From assembly GCA_019116945.1 (NCBI GenBank), contig DXAR01000088.1:1430-65429 (forward strand): DNA of 64,000 nt, written 5' to 3'. Positions 26,258 through 31,440 of this stretch are shown one piece after another. Each line of letters opens with the position of its first letter. Within the stretch, counting starts at the first letter, position 1. The position numbers and the translations under genes are program-made. The stretch is from Candidatus Janibacter merdipullorum. Lineage in GTDB: Bacteria > Actinomycetota > Actinomycetes > Actinomycetales > Dermatophilaceae. The notes beneath the pieces are model-generated. The model searched no databases. It saw only the letters and a list, made by a program, of their open reading frames with translations, and was not told where the DNA came from.

Positions 26258-27157
26258 GTGGAAGCACTCGCCCTTCGCCTCGTCCTCCCTCCCCTCATCG
26301 TCACCGTCGCGACCCTGGCCCAGCGACACCTGGGTGACCGTCTCGGTGGCCTCCTCGTCGGTCTGCCGCTGACCTCCGGCACCTTCCTCGGCCTGCTCTT
26401 CGCCAGCCATGGCCCTGCCGCGGTCGCCGATGCCGCTGTCGGGATGCTGGCCGGCCAGGTCGCGGTCATCGCCCTCACGACGGCGTATGCCCACGCCGCG
26501 GGGACCCGGGCACCTCTGGCGCTGCTGGCGAGCGTGGTCGCGTGGGTCGCGACGGTCACCCTGGTGAGAGCGATCGACACCCTCGTCCTCGGCTGCGCCC
26601 TCTTCGGCGTCGCGACACTCATCGCCGTGCGCACCTGGCCGGGTCCCAGCGCCGTCACCGAGCGGCCGGCAGCACCCGGCGCCCGCGACCTCTTCACCCG
26701 CATCACCCTGGCCACCGCTCTCATCCTCGGCCTGACTGCCGGCGTGGAGATCCTCGGCCCCCAGCTCGCCGGCCTGCTCTCGGCTGCTCCCCTCGTGGCG
26801 CTGGTCCTCGCTCCCTCCACGCACCGGGTCGGCGGAGTCGGGGCCGTGCGGACACTCCTCCACGGGGTCGTCCGGGGCTCGGCCGGTGCCGCCGTCTTCG
26901 CGACCGTCCTCGCCATCGGCATCGCGCCCCTCGGCGGGCTCGCCTTCCTCGTGGCCGCCCTCTGCGGGATCTCGGTCGTCGCGATGTCGGTCGCGCCGCG
27001 GAACACTCATCACGCCGGGCTCACGCACGACATACCCTCCCTCCATGAGCACCCCCATCACCACCGTCGGAGTCGTGGGCGCCGGAGCCATGGGAGCGAT
27101 GTACGCGGCGCACTTCGTCGAAGGGGGCACGGAGACCCATCTCGTCGCCTCGGGTGA
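26258..27157 (+). CDS. Multi-pass membrane protein with internal duplication (GlpM-like halves), divergent from Lrp
   Basis: Two similar modules: LGDRLGGLLVGLPLTSG and LGPQLAGLLSAAPLVA. The C-terminal tail overlaps panE by about 110 nt. Confidence 0.6.
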   Translation: MEALALRLVLPPLIVTVATLAQRHLGDRLGGLLVGLPLTSGTFLGLLFASHGPAAVADAAVGMLAGQVAVIALTTAYAHAAGTRAPLALLASVVAWVATVTLVRAIDTLVLGCALFGVATLIAVRTWPGPSAVTERPAAPGARDLFTRITLATALILGLTAGVEILGPQLAGLLSAAPLVALVLAPSTHRVGGVGAVRTLLHGVVRGSAGAAVFATVLAIGIAPLGGLAFLVAALCGISVVAMSVAPRNTHHAGLTHDIPSLHEHPHHHRRSRGRRSHGSDVRGALRRRGHGDPSRRLG

Positions 27158-27947
27158 GCGCGCAGAGCGCCTCCGCACCGCCGGTGTGCGAGTCAACGGG
27201 ACTCCCCTGGACGCACCGGTGCTCGACCCGGACGATGCTGGGTCCACCCCGCTCGATCTCGCCGTCGTCGCGGTCAAGCACCACCACCTGGACCAGGCGC
27301 TCGACGACCTCGCCCCCTTCGTCGGGCCGCAGACGACGATCGTCTCCGTGCTCAACGGTCTCGACAGCGAGCAGCGCATCGCCGACCGTTTCGGCAGCGA
27401 GGGCGTCCTCCTGTGCATCGCCCTCGGGATGGCCGCCGGGCGGGAGGGCACCGAGGTCACCTACCTCTCCCCCGGTCAGCTCGTCATCGGCACCGCACCC
27501 CACCTGGCGGCGCCCGGTCGGGTCGACGCCGTCGGAGCGGCCCTCGACCGGGCCGGCCTCGCGTGGCAGGCGCCCGAGGACATGGAGCACGAGATGTGGT
27601 GGAAGTTCATGGTCAACACCTGCATCAACCAGGCGTCCGCGGTGATGCGTCTCCCCTATGCAGCCTTCACCGAGGCGGGGCCCGCCCGCTCGCTCATGCT
27701 CGCCCTCCGGGACGAGGTCGTCGCCGTCTCGCACCCTGCCGGCGTCCCCCTCGGACCCGCCGACTGCGAGCGGTGGGACGAGGTCCTCCGCGGACTCCCC
27801 GCGGAGGGGCACACCTCGATGCTCCAGGACGTCCTCGCCGGACGGCCCACCGAGGTCTCCCTCTTCGCCGACCATGTCGTGGATCTCGGTGCGGCACACG
27901 GGATCCCGACGCCCTACAACCAGACGATGTCCTGGCTCCTGGGCTGA
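27045..27947 (+). CDS. panE: 2-dehydropantoate 2-reductase (ketopantoate reductase family)
   Basis: VGAGAMG, SVLNGLDSE, WWKFMVN, TSMLQD, RPTEV. Confidence 0.8.
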   Translation: MSTPITTVGVVGAGAMGAMYAAHFVEGGTETHLVASGERAERLRTAGVRVNGTPLDAPVLDPDDAGSTPLDLAVVAVKHHHLDQALDDLAPFVGPQTTIVSVLNGLDSEQRIADRFGSEGVLLCIALGMAAGREGTEVTYLSPGQLVIGTAPHLAAPGRVDAVGAALDRAGLAWQAPEDMEHEMWWKFMVNTCINQASAVMRLPYAAFTEAGPARSLMLALRDEVVAVSHPAGVPLGPADCERWDEVLRGLPAEGHTSMLQDVLAGRPTEVSLFADHVVDLGAAHGIPTPYNQTMSWLLG

Positions 27948-27950
27948 CGC

Positions 27951-28265
27951 TCAGCGTCGGTCCCGCACCAGCCGCCGGACCTCCACCTCATAACGGCTGG
28001 CCGGCCCTCCGGGGGTCCTGAAGAAGCGCCGCCGCAGGGCGCCCTCGACCCGTGCGCGATCGCCGTCCTGGAACCGACCCGCGGCCCGCCGCGCCCCGGC
28101 GCTCCAGCAGGCGCAGTCGATGGTGTCGACCGGCCCACCGTCCGCGCGGGCGACGACGAGCCGAAGCGTCACGAGCGCGTCCCCGCTCGGGAGGTCCCGC
28201 GTCACGGGATCTCCGCTGACCCTCCCCGTGAGTTCCACGAGGTTGGTCTCCTGCGTCGTCGCCAC
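27951..28265 (-). CDS. ssb: Short single-stranded DNA-binding protein paralogue (SsbB-like)
   Basis: NLVELTGRVSGDP...DTIDCACW...RVEGALRRRFF OB-fold pattern; no acidic tail. Confidence 0.8.
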   Translation of the reverse strand: MATTQETNLVELTGRVSGDPVTRDLPSGDALVTLRLVVARADGGPVDTIDCACWSAGARRAAGRFQDGDRARVEGALRRRFFRTPGGPASRYEVEVRRLVRDRR

Positions 28266-28435
28266 CGTGCCACTCCCCTTCGTCGTCGTGCCCCCACCCT
28301 CGTCCTCCGCGGGCCGACGCACGGGACCCGACCCTCCCCTGTGGACGAAGGGCGCGGACGGTCACCACATGTGGGTGGACCACCTGCTGAGACGCCGAGT
28401 TGCCCCTGCCGGACGCCAGGGGTCTACTGGATGCA

Positions 28436-28518
28436 CCCATCCAGAGCGGCCGAGAGATCTGGCTCGACGACGCCGCAGCAACCACCTTCGGGCAGGTGCT
28501 CACGCCAGGATCGATGGA
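28436..28518 (+). ncRNA. SAM riboswitch (SAM-I or SAM-I/IV variant)
   Basis: ccATCcAGAGcggccGAGAGAtctGGCTCgacGACGCCgcaGCAACC...GGTGCtcacgCCagga..GATGG matches the S-box core (AUCxAGAG, GCAACC, GGUGC). P1 is CCAUC/GAUGG. It lies upstream of sulfur-assimilation genes. Confidence 0.8.
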
Positions 28519-28525
28519 GGAAGAG

Positions 28526-28597
28526 ATGAAGGTGCTCGTCACCCGCCGCGTCATCGACCACAAGCGTCGAGGCGTCACCGCCTGTCCACTCGACTGA
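28526..28597 (+). CDS. Putative Cys-containing leader peptide MKVLVTRRVIDHKRRGVTACPLD
   Basis: GGAGG SD at 28516-28520; L-x-RR-x-I/V-D-x-x-R-x4-C pattern of actinobacterial sulfur-operon leader peptides. Confidence 0.65.
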   Translation: MKVLVTRRVIDHKRRGVTACPLD

Positions 28598-28680
28598 GCC
28601 ACAGCCGCGGGGCTGCAGCCCCGCCACCTCGGCCGGCACCCGGCCACACACTGCCTTCCCCCTTCGTCCTGGGAGGACCC

Positions 28681-29187
28681 ATGTCCATCACCACGGTGTC
28701 CCCGCCCGATGTCCGGGCCGCCTTCCGTGCCGCCGCGGCCAGTGCCTGGGTCGTCACCGGGCACTCGGCGGACGGCCCCGTCGGCTTCACCGCGATCTCC
28801 GTCGTCTCGGTGTCCGTCGACCCACCTCTCGTGAGCTTCAACATCTCGAAGAGCTCAAGCTCGCTCGCCACCGTCAGCCGCTCCCGTCGCGCCGCACTCC
28901 ACCTGCTCGGTGACGAGCAGGCAGGTGTGGCACGGCGATTCGCCGGCGACCGGGCCCGTCGCTATGACGACGACGGGAGCTGTTCGATCGATGACGGGGG
29001 CCTCCCCCGGATCCACGGGGTCGTCAGCCGTCTCGTCGTCGAGGTCGTCGATCTCGTGGACGCCGGTGACAGCTACATCGCCGTCGGGAGGGTCGAGTCC
29101 ACCGAGACGACGGACCGCGAACCCCTCGTCCACCACGCCGGGACCTACCTCCCCCGCACCCCCAGCACGACCACGAACGGAGCCTGA
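28681..29187 (+). CDS. Flavin reductase family protein (partner of the two-component monooxygenase)
   Basis: GFTAISVVSVSVDPPLVSFNISK, DAGDSYIAVGRV, PLVHHAG; GGAGG SD. Confidence 0.85.
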   Translation: MSITTVSPPDVRAAFRAAAASAWVVTGHSADGPVGFTAISVVSVSVDPPLVSFNISKSSSSLATVSRSRRAALHLLGDEQAGVARRFAGDRARRYDDDGSCSIDDGGLPRIHGVVSRLVVEVVDLVDAGDSYIAVGRVESTETTDREPLVHHAGTYLPRTPSTTTNGA

Positions 29188-29190
29188 TCC

Positions 29191-30075
29191 ATGACCACCA
29201 CCGATCCCCTGAACTTCGCCTACTGGGCGCCCAATGTCTCCGGCGGACTTGTCGTCTCCGACATCGAGCAGCGCACCGACCACTCCCCCGCTTACAACGT
29301 CGACACCGCCCGCATGGCCGAGCAGGTCGGCTTCGACTAGGCCCTGACCCAGGTGCGCTACCTCGCCTCGTACGGCGCCGACGCCCAGCAGGAGTCGGTC
29401 TCCTTCTCGCAGGCACTCCTGCACGCCACGGAGCGGCTCAAGGTCATCGCCGCGGTCCACCCCGGCCAGTGGCCACCGCACATCCTCGCCAAGCTCGCCG
29501 CCACCACTCAGGCAACGACGAACAACCGCCTCGCGCTCAACATCGTCTCGGGATGGTTCAAGCAGGAGTACGCCCAGCTCGGGCTGGCGTGGCTCGACCA
29601 CGAGGAGCGCTACCGCCGCGCCGAGGAGTTCATCGAGGTGCTCCGCGGCCTCTGGGGCGAGGAGGAGTTCACCTACCGCGGCGACTTCTAGACCCTCGAG
29701 GGCGCTGCCGAGCAGGTGCGAGCCGTCCGGCAGCAGGCGGCCGCGCACGGTCGCCGGGGCCGCTTCGGCATCAACGGCTTCGCCCTCGTCCGCGACACCG
29801 AGGCGGAGGCCGTGGCCGTCGTCGACGAGATCATCGCCCGGGCGAATGTCGACAAGGTCAACAACTTCGGCGAGGCGGTCAAGCAGACGGGCAGCGCCAC
29901 GGCGGACAAGAAGGGGAGGTGGGCCGACAGCGAGTTCAAGGACCTCGTGCAGTACAACGACGGCTTCCGCACCGGCCTCATCGGCACTCCCGAGCAGGTC
30001 GCCGAGCGGATCGTCGAGTACAAGAAGGTCGGCATCGACCTCGTGCTCACCGGGTTCCTCCACGTCCGCGAGGAG
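29191..30075 (+). pseudogene. sfnG: Dimethylsulfone monooxygenase SfnG (luciferase-like), disrupted
   Basis: FAYWAPNVSGGLVVSDIEQRT, ALTQVRY, NIVSGWF, DLVQYNDGFRTGLIGTPEQVAERI. In-frame TAG at 29338 and 29689, an internal deletion after GDF, and the 3' end replaced. Confidence 0.85.
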
Positions 30076-30186
30076 GTCGACGAGGCGACCACGGACCAGT
30101 TGATCACTCTCACCGAGCGCTACTGCGTCATCGCGCAGACGCTGGCCTCTCCCCCTTCGCTCGAGGTGGCTGGGCGCCGGGGGTGA
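30076..30186 (+). pseudogene. C-terminal remnant of an OsmC-family protein fused in frame to sfnG
   Basis: DEATTDQLITLTERYCVIAQTLASPPSLEV resembles the L-TERYCVV-QTL C-terminus of actinobacterial OsmC-like proteins. Confidence 0.55.
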
Positions 30187-30198
30187 CATGCTGACGAG

Positions 30199-30639
30199 GT
30201 GAACGAGCTGCGGGTGCCGGCCGGGCCGGGGATCCCCGAGGGACTGGTGATCCCCGGCCCGGAGCTGTCCGAGCAGTTCAGCCGGGCAAGTGGTCCCGGA
30301 GGCCAGGGTGTCAACACGACGGACTCCCGGGTCCAGCTCTCGCTCGACCTCGCGACGACGACGGGGCTGACCGCGTCGCAGCGCGACCGTGCGCTCGGAC
30401 GCCTCGCGCCGCGGCTCGTCGGCACGACCCTCACCGTGGCCGCCGCGGAGCACCGGTCCCAGCGCCGCAACCGCGCTGCGGCCCGCGAGCGGATGGCCGG
30501 TCTGCTGCGGGAGGCACTCGCGCCCCCTCCCCCACCCCGGCGACCCACGAAGCGCACCCGCGGGTCGCAGCGCCGGCGACTGGAGGCCAAGCGCCGCCGC
30601 TCCGAGATCAAGGCCCGTCGCGGGCGCCCCATCGAGTAG
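30199..30639 (+). CDS. arfB: Alternative ribosome rescue peptidyl-tRNA hydrolase ArfB
   Basis: FSRASGPGGQGVNTTDSRV (GGQ motif), SQRRNR, basic C-terminal tail RRPTKRTRGSQRRRLEAKRRRS. Confidence 0.9.
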   Translation: MNELRVPAGPGIPEGLVIPGPELSEQFSRASGPGGQGVNTTDSRVQLSLDLATTTGLTASQRDRALGRLAPRLVGTTLTVAAAEHRSQRRNRAAARERMAGLLREALAPPPPPRRPTKRTRGSQRRRLEAKRRRSEIKARRGRPIE

Positions 30640-30648
30640 GTTGCGGGC

Positions 30649-31440
30649 ATGGACGCCGACGCCAGCACCTCCACCCGCATCGCCGTGCTCATCGACTGCG
30701 ACAACGTCTCGAGCAAGCACACGACCGCCGTGCTCGAGGAGCTCGCCAAGTACGGCACACCGACGGTCAAGCGGGCCTACGGGGACTGGACGACGACCCA
30801 GCTCGGCGGGTGGAAGGGCGAGCTGCAGCGCAATGCCATCCAGCCGGTGCAGCAGTTCGCCTACACGGTCGGCAAGAACTCCACCGACTCCGCCCTCATC
30901 ATCGACGCGATGGACCTCCTGTGGCAGGGCAATGTCGAGGCCTTCGCCCTCGTCTCCTCCGACTCCGACTTCACCCGCCTGGCCACGCGGCTCCGGGAGT
31001 CCGGCAAGCGGGTCTACGGGCTCGGCATGCGCAAGACCCCTGAGTCCCTGCGTCGTGCGGTCGACCAGTTCATCTTCCTCGAGCTGCTCGCCGAGCAGTC
31101 CCGGGAGGAGGACGACAAGCCCGAGGAGGACTCCACGGACGACGGGAGGACGCACGCCGGCTCCCCGTCCCCCGAGCCGACCCTCAACCTCCAGTCGGCG
31201 CTGACCAAGGCGATCAACGCCACCTCGGGTGATGACGGGTGGAGCACCCTCGGGACCATCGGTCAGCACCTCTCCCGCGCGCACGCGGACTTCGACCCGC
31301 GCGCCTTCGGCCACCAGAAGCTCTCGACCCTCGTCGAGGAGCAGCCCTACCTCGAGACCCGCAGCGAGGCCTCGATGATCCAGGTGCGGCTACGCACGAA
31401 GCAGCGTGCCGCCAAGAAGACGACGAACCGCAGCCGCTGA
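30649..31440 (+). CDS. NYN (LabA/DUF88) domain protein with C-terminal OST-HTH/LOTUS domain
   Basis: AVLIDCDN, RAYGDW, GKNSTDSALIIDAMDLL, SSDSDFTRLA; DFDPRAFGHQKLSTL. Confidence 0.88.
   Translation: MDADASTSTRIAVLIDCDNVSSKHTTAVLEELAKYGTPTVKRAYGDWTTTQLGGWKGELQRNAIQPVQQFAYTVGKNSTDSALIIDAMDLLWQGNVEAFALVSSDSDFTRLATRLRESGKRVYGLGMRKTPESLRRAVDQFIFLELLAEQSREEDDKPEEDSTDDGRTHAGSPSPEPTLNLQSALTKAINATSGDDGWSTLGTIGQHLSRAHADFDPRAFGHQKLSTLVEEQPYLETRSEASMIQVRLRTKQRAAKKTTNRSR

Follow-up and report, generated by a model that had tools for sequence, protein, structure and literature searches.

A SAM-I riboswitch in series with a Cys-codon leader peptide: a probable composite leader of a sulfur-scavenging operon in Janibacter

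Introduction

To our knowledge, few cases are known in which a single bacterial mRNA leader integrates two signals. The Salmonella mgtA leader combines a Mg2+ riboswitch with the proline-codon open reading frame (ORF) mgtL; the ORF is contained in the riboswitch structure, and the two sensors work on a single stem-loop choice. The metE leader of Bacillus clausii carries two aptamers, tandem riboswitches for S-adenosylmethionine (SAM) and adenosylcobalamin. Among leader peptides, TnaC captures tryptophan and SpeFL ornithine. The leader considered here lies in Candidatus Janibacter merdipullorum, in a 64-kb stretch of contig DXAR01000088.1 (positions 1,430 to 65,429 of the forward strand; this whole stretch is called the window, and positions are counted from its first letter). 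A SAM riboswitch of the SAM-I class is followed there by a 23-codon ORF with one Cys codon, and then by a flavin reductase gene and sfnG. It is probably a composite leader of a sulfur-scavenging operon with two sensors in series, the SAM riboswitch first and the Cys leader peptide second. As in mgtA and the tandem riboswitches, one leader would integrate two signals; here the aptamer is proposed to gate the initiation of an amino-acid-sensing ORF.

The second sensor has its closest described counterpart in the mycobacterial polycysteine ORFs, short ORFs located before cysteine/sulfur operons that sense charged tRNA-Cys by ribosome pausing (bioRxiv 10.1101/834739). In the case of Ms5788A, downstream expression goes up when cysteine is limiting, provided that the short ORF is translated; a non-start mutant stays attenuated, and recoding of the Cys tract abolishes the response (bioRxiv 10.1101/834739). 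Canestrari et al. also noted conserved non-Cys residues of unexplained meaning in these ORFs (bioRxiv 10.1101/834739). The polycysteine ORFs and the window ORF belong to families related in sequence. The former are leaderless and carry two or more Cys codons in a row; the Cys tract of Ms5788A pairs with the Shine-Dalgarno sequence downstream of it. In contrast, the window ORF has one Cys codon and starts 5 nt after a GGAGG behind an 87-nt aptamer, and no such pairing is predicted.

The first sensor shares with the SAM-I family RF00162 the P1 stem, P2 with its kink-turn region, P3, the junction sequences and a position upstream of methionine/sulfur genes. It differs in a P4 of 1-2 nt, in its use as a translational platform (the Shine-Dalgarno sequence is part of P1) rather than the terminator/antiterminator of the Firmicutes, and in driving a leader peptide. 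Riboswitches that control a short upstream ORF (uORF) have been described in M. tuberculosis, namely the B12 switch ahead of the ppe2 uORF (PMC11260477) and the Mbox, which controls the conserved uORF rv1805A via a translational platform and Rho (PMC12810186). In both, as is proposed here, the first ORF behind a translational OFF switch is a short conserved uORF; the downstream genes depend on it and Rho-dependent termination is implicated (PMC11260477, PMC12810186). The ligands are different, however, no amino-acid sensing is known for the uORFs, and the ppe2 case involves termination-reinitiation, whereas the gap in the present family is 51-231 nt. The tnaC and speFL leaders, in which a stalled ribosome masks a Rho-utilisation (rut) site (bioRxiv 10.1101/604074; PMC8450073), likewise comprise a short conserved ORF with a hairpin at its 3′ end next to a rut-like C-rich region, and their structural genes have a ribosome-binding site of their own. 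They are riboswitch-less, and their sequence resemblance to the window family is marginal.

Both parts of the window leader are of known kinds and it is their combination in series that appears to be new. Full-text literature searches returned neither a description of a SAM riboswitch before any Cys leader peptide nor a paper on the leader-peptide family NF042934. An earlier note on this DNA, made from the sequence, had called the architecture unusual; this seems to hold for the SAM and Cys-leader combination but not for riboswitch-controlled uORFs as such, which are published (PMC11260477, PMC12810186).

A SAM-I aptamer that overlaps a Shine-Dalgarno sequence

In a cmscan search of the whole window RF00162 (SAM) is the sole match over its gathering score, with the proviso that clan competition in the Rfam scan masks any SAM-IV or SAM-I/IV score. 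It reaches 56.6 bits against a gathering score of 44.4 (E 2e-10) over model positions 1-108, a full-length match. A permissive rescan of 501 bases (28300-28800) gave noise only, with no second Rfam family near its threshold. The aptamer spans 28434-28520 and, like all features of the leader and its operon given below, lies on the plus strand. It is a P4-less variant of the SAM-I (S-box) class: P1 to P3 align to RF00162, and P4 is 1 nt where the model carries a 17-nt insert. In the cmscan structure P1 is made up of the pairs C28434-G28520, C28437-G28517, C28438-G28516, A28439-U28515, U28440-A28514 and C28441-G28513, with two non-standard pairs between the standard ones. The P1 3′ strand (GAUGGAGG, 28513-28520) includes Shine-Dalgarno 1 (GGAGG, 28516-28520), whose bases G28516, G28517 and G28520 are paired within P1; judged by structure, the bound fold would sequester the Shine-Dalgarno sequence of the ORF that follows. 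The earlier note described the locus and its coordinates correctly. Its SAM-I-like aptamer is confirmed by the Infernal/Rfam comparison that it had suggested, and the overlap that it had seen between the P1 3′ strand GAUGG (28513-28517) and GGAGG is reproduced by the cmscan alignment.

The same riboswitch subclass was followed in relatives. Close sfnG loci were taken from reference genomes, ten flavin-reductase homologue loci were gathered via flavin-reductase and peptide look-ups, and metagenomes were scanned for the subclass string GGTGCTCACGCCAG-N2-4-CGATGGAG. The P4-less SAM-I element is present at six of the seven close sfnG loci and at eight of the ten flavin-reductase loci, and the relatives score 48-66 bits on RF00162. 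Every member of the subclass has a P4 of 1-2 nt instead of the 17-18-nt insert. At about 50 loci CGATGGAG is followed by a start codon 4-6 nt on, the genes 3′ of the element being metF, rhodanese, ABC ATPase or flavin reductase/sfnG. In the metagenome loci GGAG stands 4-6 nt before the start of metF (many loci), of an ABC-transporter ATPase or of rhodanese. Because the Shine-Dalgarno sequence sits this close to the metF, ABC ATPase and rhodanese starts, the subclass looks like a translational OFF switch by its layout, in which formation of P1 would hide the Shine-Dalgarno sequence.

Apart from two loci taken up below, the flavin-reductase operons (with sfnG and/or OsmC next) use the riboswitch Shine-Dalgarno sequence for a short ORF, and one acyl-CoA-dehydrogenase-like gene (L072a) likewise has a riboswitch-driven short ORF in front. 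The enzyme gene at such loci has its own Shine-Dalgarno sequence 51-231 nt past the short-ORF stop codon. In the window this is Shine-Dalgarno 2 (GGGAGGA, 28671-28677), which serves the flavin reductase; its GGGAGGA-ATG lies 84 nt on. The proposal that the riboswitch gates the leader peptide and not the enzyme is thereby upheld in silico.

Short ORFs of other kinds also occur behind the element. Those of 7-18 codons precede metF in L035, L038, L054, L049, L047, L032 and L048, and rhodanese in L051 and L063. These uORFs (e.g., MATTSRGLR, MSDEEPR) mostly overlap or abut the enzyme start, an arrangement that resembles translational coupling. Cys is absent from six of their seven types (L047 has two), whereas the sulfur-scavenging leaders do carry Cys. 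Another type (MFQCFTEMPPAVTAGLC, MFCRSQEMPSAVTADATTVR) is found between riboswitch and flavin reductase/sfnG at L005 (3252-3305) and L007 (4256-4318); it is without the RR..D..R motif, yet the GGCGGUCA / UGACCGCC hairpin is kept. In the lower-GC loci L058, L065 and L066 the ORF driven by the riboswitch is a conserved one of 51 aa with two Cys (MLLINQLFVKSCATVAEVLCGL...); it precedes an acyl-CoA-dehydrogenase-like gene and matches no family.

The leader ORF and its conservation

The leader ORF (MKVLVTRRVIDHKRRGVTACPLD, 28526-28597) consists of 23 codons and a TGA. Its ATG at 28526 is five bases past GGAGG and its stop codon occupies 28595-28597. As frames of at least 23 codons follow 77% of the ATGs in this window (71% G+C), an ORF of this length is by itself weak evidence, and it is the conservation that counts. 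Sixteen distinct loci from Janibacter, Ornithinimicrobium, Cumulibacter and uncultured actinobacteria/metagenomes (the window, L057, L001, L053, L070, L072a, L072b, L002, L003, L076, L033, L050, L075, L077, L069 and L074) carry the core RR.[VI]D[LH][MK]RR[GA]V[TSG]AC, followed by 0-3 codons and the stop. They combine riboswitch, short ORF and flavin reductase, usually with sfnG or OsmC next; the exception is L072a. The combination is conserved, as the survey of relatives for the order riboswitch, short ORF and sfnG, proposed in the earlier note, shows. The GGAGG-led 23-codon ORF with one Cys codon stands as described, and so does the conservation of its peptide pattern; the spacing given for it, RR.D..R....C, is to be corrected to RR..D..R.....C.

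The leader peptides are 22-41 aa long. Their N-terminal part differs in length and sequence, and the frame from the Shine-Dalgarno-proximal start is kept. Within the 14-codon core 3, 5 and 10 columns vary at codon positions 1, 2 and 3, respectively (Fisher p = 0.019), and the four invariant Arg are written as CGC, CGT, CGG and CGA. On this evidence the leader ORF appears to be under selection as a peptide. The motif, applied as a regular expression to six frames of all fetched loci, matches these leaders only. In the ~97%-identical strain X32 the leader ORF is without differences and its flanks have several; aptamer, Shine-Dalgarno 1, leader ORF and flavin reductase are all unchanged in this strain and in independent metagenome contigs, except for V5F in L057.

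Two trivial origins of the short ORF can be dismissed. That it is the stump of a deleted larger gene is ruled out by its conservation as a 22-41-codon ORF at 16 loci, and that it is part of a SAM-IV-like extended aptamer is ruled out by other members of the subclass, which have unrelated coding sequence directly after GGAG. L072 holds riboswitch-leader modules at 737-825 and 2285-2373, one before the acyl-CoA-dehydrogenase-like gene and the other before flavin reductase and OsmC. The pair appears to have been duplicated there as a unit and, since the two modules precede different genes, riboswitch and leader seem to behave as one.

Relation to annotated leader-peptide families

Pfam gave no match for any leader peptide and a first peptide-profile search returned a single annotated homologue. 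The link to known families came from NF042934 ("cis_reg_atten, putative leader peptide"), a profile of 19 positions of which the last falls exactly at the Cys; the L077 peptide scores 12.4 bits on it against a cut-off of 27. Probe peptides modelled on the family consensus, which served as search probes only, score 39 bits on NF042934 and also match NF042933 (Ms5788A family) and NF042936 (Ms4527A family), two families of Cys-rich leader peptides named for ORFs whose response to cysteine was characterised by experiment (bioRxiv 10.1101/834739). The riboswitch-linked peptides are weak matches to the same three families. A profile search seeded with both the probes and the riboswitch-linked peptides collected 391 proteins across Actinomycetes, including Streptomyces, Amycolatopsis, Modestobacter, Kribbella, Terrabacter and Janibacter, most of them named "putative leader peptide" by NCBI and most with just one Cys codon. 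Their consensus is LTxRRHVDLLRVsSALC, and the invariants RR..DL.R.....C are spaced as in the riboswitch-linked set. For the RR-type peptides of Janibacter cremeus (P0142), P0132, P0195 and P0206 a riboswitch in front is predicted. An hhalign comparison of eight riboswitch-linked peptides with 30 NCBI-named members gives a probability of 93.3% (E 2.7e-7) over 26 columns, with the Cys in register. By profile comparison, then, the window peptide is placed in a divergent subfamily of NF042934, within a superfamily that includes the Ms5788A leader peptide; by the curated cut-off it is not a member.

The three families and the window subfamily have in common RR.[VI]D[LH].R.....C with equal spacing, 0-10 tail codons, TGT as the Cys codon, a C-rich spacer and sulfur-scavenging genes downstream. 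They differ in the stretch before the Cys, which is ..LRVsSALC in NF042934 and ..MRR[GA]V[TS]AC in the window subfamily; the latter is also Shine-Dalgarno-led and placed behind a SAM riboswitch. The genomic context is that of NF042934, the window ORF being directly upstream of, and co-oriented with, sulfur-scavenging genes (flavin reductase, sfnG). Three canonical members were checked, from Streptacidiphilus (L080), Kribbella (L082) and Modestobacter (L083). Downstream of their leaders come C-rich spacers of 83-199 nt and then genes for luciferase-like (LLM) monooxygenases or for an ssuABC-like transporter; upstream there is no Rfam match, hence no SAM riboswitch. As leader and riboswitch each occur alone elsewhere, the window lineage joins two otherwise separate sensors.

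The Cys codon and the hairpin around it

The proposed sensing codon is the single invariant TGT at 28583-28585. It is TGT in all 17 riboswitch-linked RR..D leaders (14 unique cores) and in the three canonical family members, and the Ala codon ahead of it varies (GCC, GCG, GCA). TGT is rare, accounting for 8 of the 85 Cys codons in the likely genes of the window, and the rare Arg codons CGT CGA directly precede it in the subgroup of the window. Its constancy may reflect either a rare-codon effect or a constraint on the RNA. Runs of Cys codons are seen in few relatives, as CCC in L002 only and as C.C in L003 and L076.

The window has a local hairpin that encloses the Cys codon (28566-28594), read from the sequence and a minimum-free-energy (MFE) fold. 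GUCGAG (28566-28571) pairs with CUCGAC (28589-28594), with an inner AGGCG/CGCCU at 28570-28583. In 13 of 17 riboswitch-linked leaders the 16 nt immediately 5′ of the Cys codon form a duplex with the stop codon and its 3′ flank, leaving the Cys codon in the loop; duplex energies are -16 to -26 kcal/mol, with z-scores of -2.1 to -3.5 relative to shuffles. Compensatory changes distinguish the subgroups (GGCGGUCAGCGC with GCGCUGCCCGCC, GGCAGUCA with UGACUGCC, GGCCGUCA with UGACGGCC, CGGCGGUCA with UGACCGCCG). The hairpin accounts for the frequent TGAC stop context and for part of the [GA]-V-[TS]-A conservation.

The spacer and the output step

Past the stop codon lies a C-rich, G-poor spacer of 83 nt (28598-28680; 49% C, 28% G), a candidate Rho-utilisation region. 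Its C>G skew of +0.28 is within the top 2% of 80-nt windows on this strand, and related spacers have skews of +0.25 to +0.45 in 15 of 17 cases, the other two being +0.18 and +0.13. Rut sites in M. tuberculosis are described as C>G-biased (PMC13650167). Two GC hairpins can be read from the spacer sequence, GCGGGGCTGCAGCCCCGC at 28607-28624 and GGCCGG-CAC-CCGGCC at 28631-28645. These are the GC-rich palindromes of the earlier note; they are present, but they do not qualify as a conserved attenuator element, having no T-run and no conservation in relatives. With no intrinsic terminator in 28250-28750 either, intrinsic termination is rejected.

In the MFE fold of the window the P1 3′ strand and Shine-Dalgarno 1 pair with a pyrimidine tract ahead of Shine-Dalgarno 2. 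Across 17 leaders, however, the complementarity of this tract to Shine-Dalgarno 1 or 2 is no better than that of shuffles; the long-range pairing is therefore not conserved and an anti-Shine-Dalgarno relay is rejected. The stability of the whole leader is not unusual (z-score -0.87). The best guess for the output is premature, Rho-dependent termination (polarity), favoured over ribosome-binding-site unmasking because the flavin reductase has its own Shine-Dalgarno sequence at the distance given above, behind a C-rich, G-poor spacer. It is the least certain step. For Rho to be the effector, a lingering ribosome or the hairpin would need to change access to the rut region.

Other elements occur in the spacers of relatives. 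That of L070 (about 2340-2470) has three tandem copies of a ~35-nt unit (GCGAGGCTCGGCCCTGCGGCCCTCACACCTCAACCA), and the window (28631-28651) and L001 each have a single related hairpin, after which CACAC follows. In L075, L077, L033, L005 and L007 a CAUAC-loop hairpin is found ~20-40 nt before the flavin reductase Shine-Dalgarno sequence, and its stems covary (GGUUCGG with CCGGACC, GUUCGGC with GCCGAGC, GGUCCG with CGGACC).

Proposed mechanism

The arrangement suggests that the operon responds to two inputs, low SAM and low cysteine, a reading supported in silico. When SAM is bound, P1 would form and take up part of Shine-Dalgarno 1, leaving the leader ORF untranslated. Because the Ms5788A non-start mutant is locked off, the SAM-bound riboswitch should act as a missing start codon does, and by this analogy the untranslated leader would be locked in the attenuated state. 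When SAM is low, a ribosome would translate the 23-codon leader and meet the single rare UGU shortly before the stop codon, with a dwell time set by charged tRNA-Cys. Plentiful cysteine would allow fast read-through and lead to attenuation as well. A ribosome lingering at the Cys codon would be the sole state that relieves attenuation, and flavin reductase and sfnG would be expressed only if both SAM and cysteine are low (an AND gate). Such a gate, if true, would suit genes that scavenge sulfur from dimethylsulfone. A bolder version combines it with peptide-mediated arrest: an arresting or sensitising RR..D[LH].R.....C peptide, sensing UGU decoding or a metabolite and blocking Rho, would have been placed under a SAM riboswitch in the Janibacter/Ornithinimicrobium lineage as a modular two-input RNA/ribosome gate. 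This is conceivable, though unlikely.

A number of observations weigh against the two-input reading. The validated mycobacterial ORFs are leaderless and carry Cys codons in runs of two or more, against a single one in the window ORF, and the riboswitch-linked subfamily is so far supported by computation. The window peptide has no match to NF042934 at E <= 10, and its relatives L077, L074 and L033 reach 12.3-13.0 bits, under the 27-bit cut-off, compared to 33.5 for the canonical P0151. No conserved complementarity would give a pairing of Cys tract and Shine-Dalgarno sequence like that of Ms5788A, and none is predicted in the window. In partition-function calculations, placing a ribosome on the Cys codon or on the whole ORF does not alter the unpaired probability of Shine-Dalgarno 2 in 15 of 17 leaders; as the modelled ribosome leaves the accessibility of this site unaffected, unmasking of the Ms5788A type is rejected. 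A rut region past the stop codon would be exposed whether the ORF is translated or not, which leaves the Rho model in need of a further assumption. The strong Cys-enclosing hairpin of relatives is weak in the window (z +0.86), which has TGAG in place of TGAC, and it is inconsistent in the three canonical members; it is rejected as a family-wide feature. The leader ORF is also dispensable or altered at some loci: the flavin reductase of Marihabitans L006 starts 6 nt after the riboswitch Shine-Dalgarno sequence and that of Barrientosiimonas L079 at 16 nt behind a separate GAGAGGA, both without a leader ORF, and in L007 the leader lacks a Cys close to the stop codon. Finally, sfnG is a pseudogene in this genome, where the module may be on its way out.

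The best-surviving alternative makes the riboswitch the sole sensor, with translation of the ORF passively reporting its state, for instance by keeping Rho from loading. On this view neither the Cys codon nor the conserved residues would take part in sensing, and overlapping RNA structure would be what preserves them. Relays from a riboswitch to a uORF have been published (PMC11260477, PMC12810186), and the same subclass drives the 7-18-codon uORFs, six of seven types without Cys, at metF/rhodanese starts. The [GA]-V-[TS]-A codons do form an arm of the hairpin with compensatory changes, so that the peptide conservation is partly at the RNA level. Yet RR..D..R.....C is kept across subgroups with differing RNA pairings, most of the variation falls on third codon positions, and the invariant Cys codon never departs from the rare TGT. 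The ORF is also homologous to a family found without riboswitch before sulfur-scavenging genes, which argues for a role of its own. A purely passive relay is for these reasons improbable.

A sensing arrest peptide is a more doubtful proposition. The nascent RR..DL.R.....C chain in the exit tunnel would sharpen the dependence of UGU decoding on Cys-tRNA, or capture a sulfur metabolite, and the stalled ribosome would then mask the adjacent C-rich rut region. The fixed distance from motif to Cys, as opposed to the variable distance to the stop codon (0-3 codons), would fit, and so would the rare Arg codons right before the Cys codon in the subgroup of the window and the tnaC/speFL-like layout of short conserved ORF, hairpin at the 3′ end and C-rich spacer. 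The PHLRRxVDLM of Ornithinimicrobium resembles the SpeFL sensor segment with its HIRRXXH motif; but the resemblance is short and absent from the window peptide, the distance of the motif to the peptidyl-transferase centre is unlike that in SpeFL, and plain amino-acid starvation sensing accounts for the Cys codon more simply. The underlying match, (M/I)PHLRRxVDLM in L033, L069, L074, L075 and L077 against PHIRRTTHIM of SpeFL, is a lead only and may be coincidence. The two-input leader, with the Cys codon as an amino-acid sensor under the riboswitch, is the reading retained.

The downstream operon and its transcription

The first enzyme gene of the operon encodes an intact flavin reductase of 168 aa (28681-29187; PF01613, 89 bits), whose homologues adjoin sfnG in relatives. 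It is followed by sfnG (dimethylsulfone monooxygenase; 29191-30186), matched by TIGR04021 with 443.6 bits in two stretches. The flavin reductase-sfnG pair had been named correctly in the earlier note; to this is added that sfnG is a pseudogene here. The frame is broken by in-frame TAG codons at 29338-29340 (replacing Tyr) and at 29689-29691 (a deletion junction), and relative to the intact syntenic gene of L070 there is a ~42-codon deletion and a divergent C-terminus. The sfnG ORF of the independent metagenome contig L057 breaks at identical offsets, and the related strain X32 has an extra 280-nt deletion, from 29673 to 29954. The decay of the operon lowers physiological relevance in this genome and not the value of the architecture.

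Low-depth contigs from two metatranscriptome runs map to three stretches, 28460-28665, 28669-28860 and 28998-29196, and to portions of the sfnG pseudogene; the first stretch takes in the short ORF together with the 3′ half of the aptamer and most of the spacer. No 5′ or 3′ ends can be read from these contigs, which indicate the presence of RNA or of contaminating DNA only.

That the leader is a functionless, decaying remnant here, or encodes a 23-aa basic micro-protein acting in trans, is the least probable of the explanations: the disrupted sfnG and the lack of the strong hairpin and of the TGAC context would fit a remnant, and a peptide function is also considered by the authors of the work on the Mbox-controlled M. 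tuberculosis uORF (PMC12810186), but aptamer, Shine-Dalgarno 1, leader ORF and flavin reductase are intact and near-unchanged in relatives, RNA-seq contigs cover the leader, and action in trans is known for no family member.

The order of genes over 26886-31440 is panE, an SSB-like gene (minus strand, 27951-28322), the leader, flavin reductase, sfnG, arfB (30199-30639) and a NYN/OST-HTH gene (30649-31440), and from panE to NYN/OST-HTH it is syntenic with L070 and L072. An 819-aa minus-strand ORF at 28855-31314 overlaps the real genes and seems to be an artefact of high GC.

Implications

The loci surveyed provide natural controls, with the riboswitch only (L006, L079), the leader only (L080-L083) and both combined. 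If the two-input reading is true, it would offer a first route to the function of the "putative leader peptide" family of NCBI, which is large and uncharacterised, and it would extend the riboswitch-to-uORF theme of M. tuberculosis to SAM and to non-mycobacterial actinobacteria.

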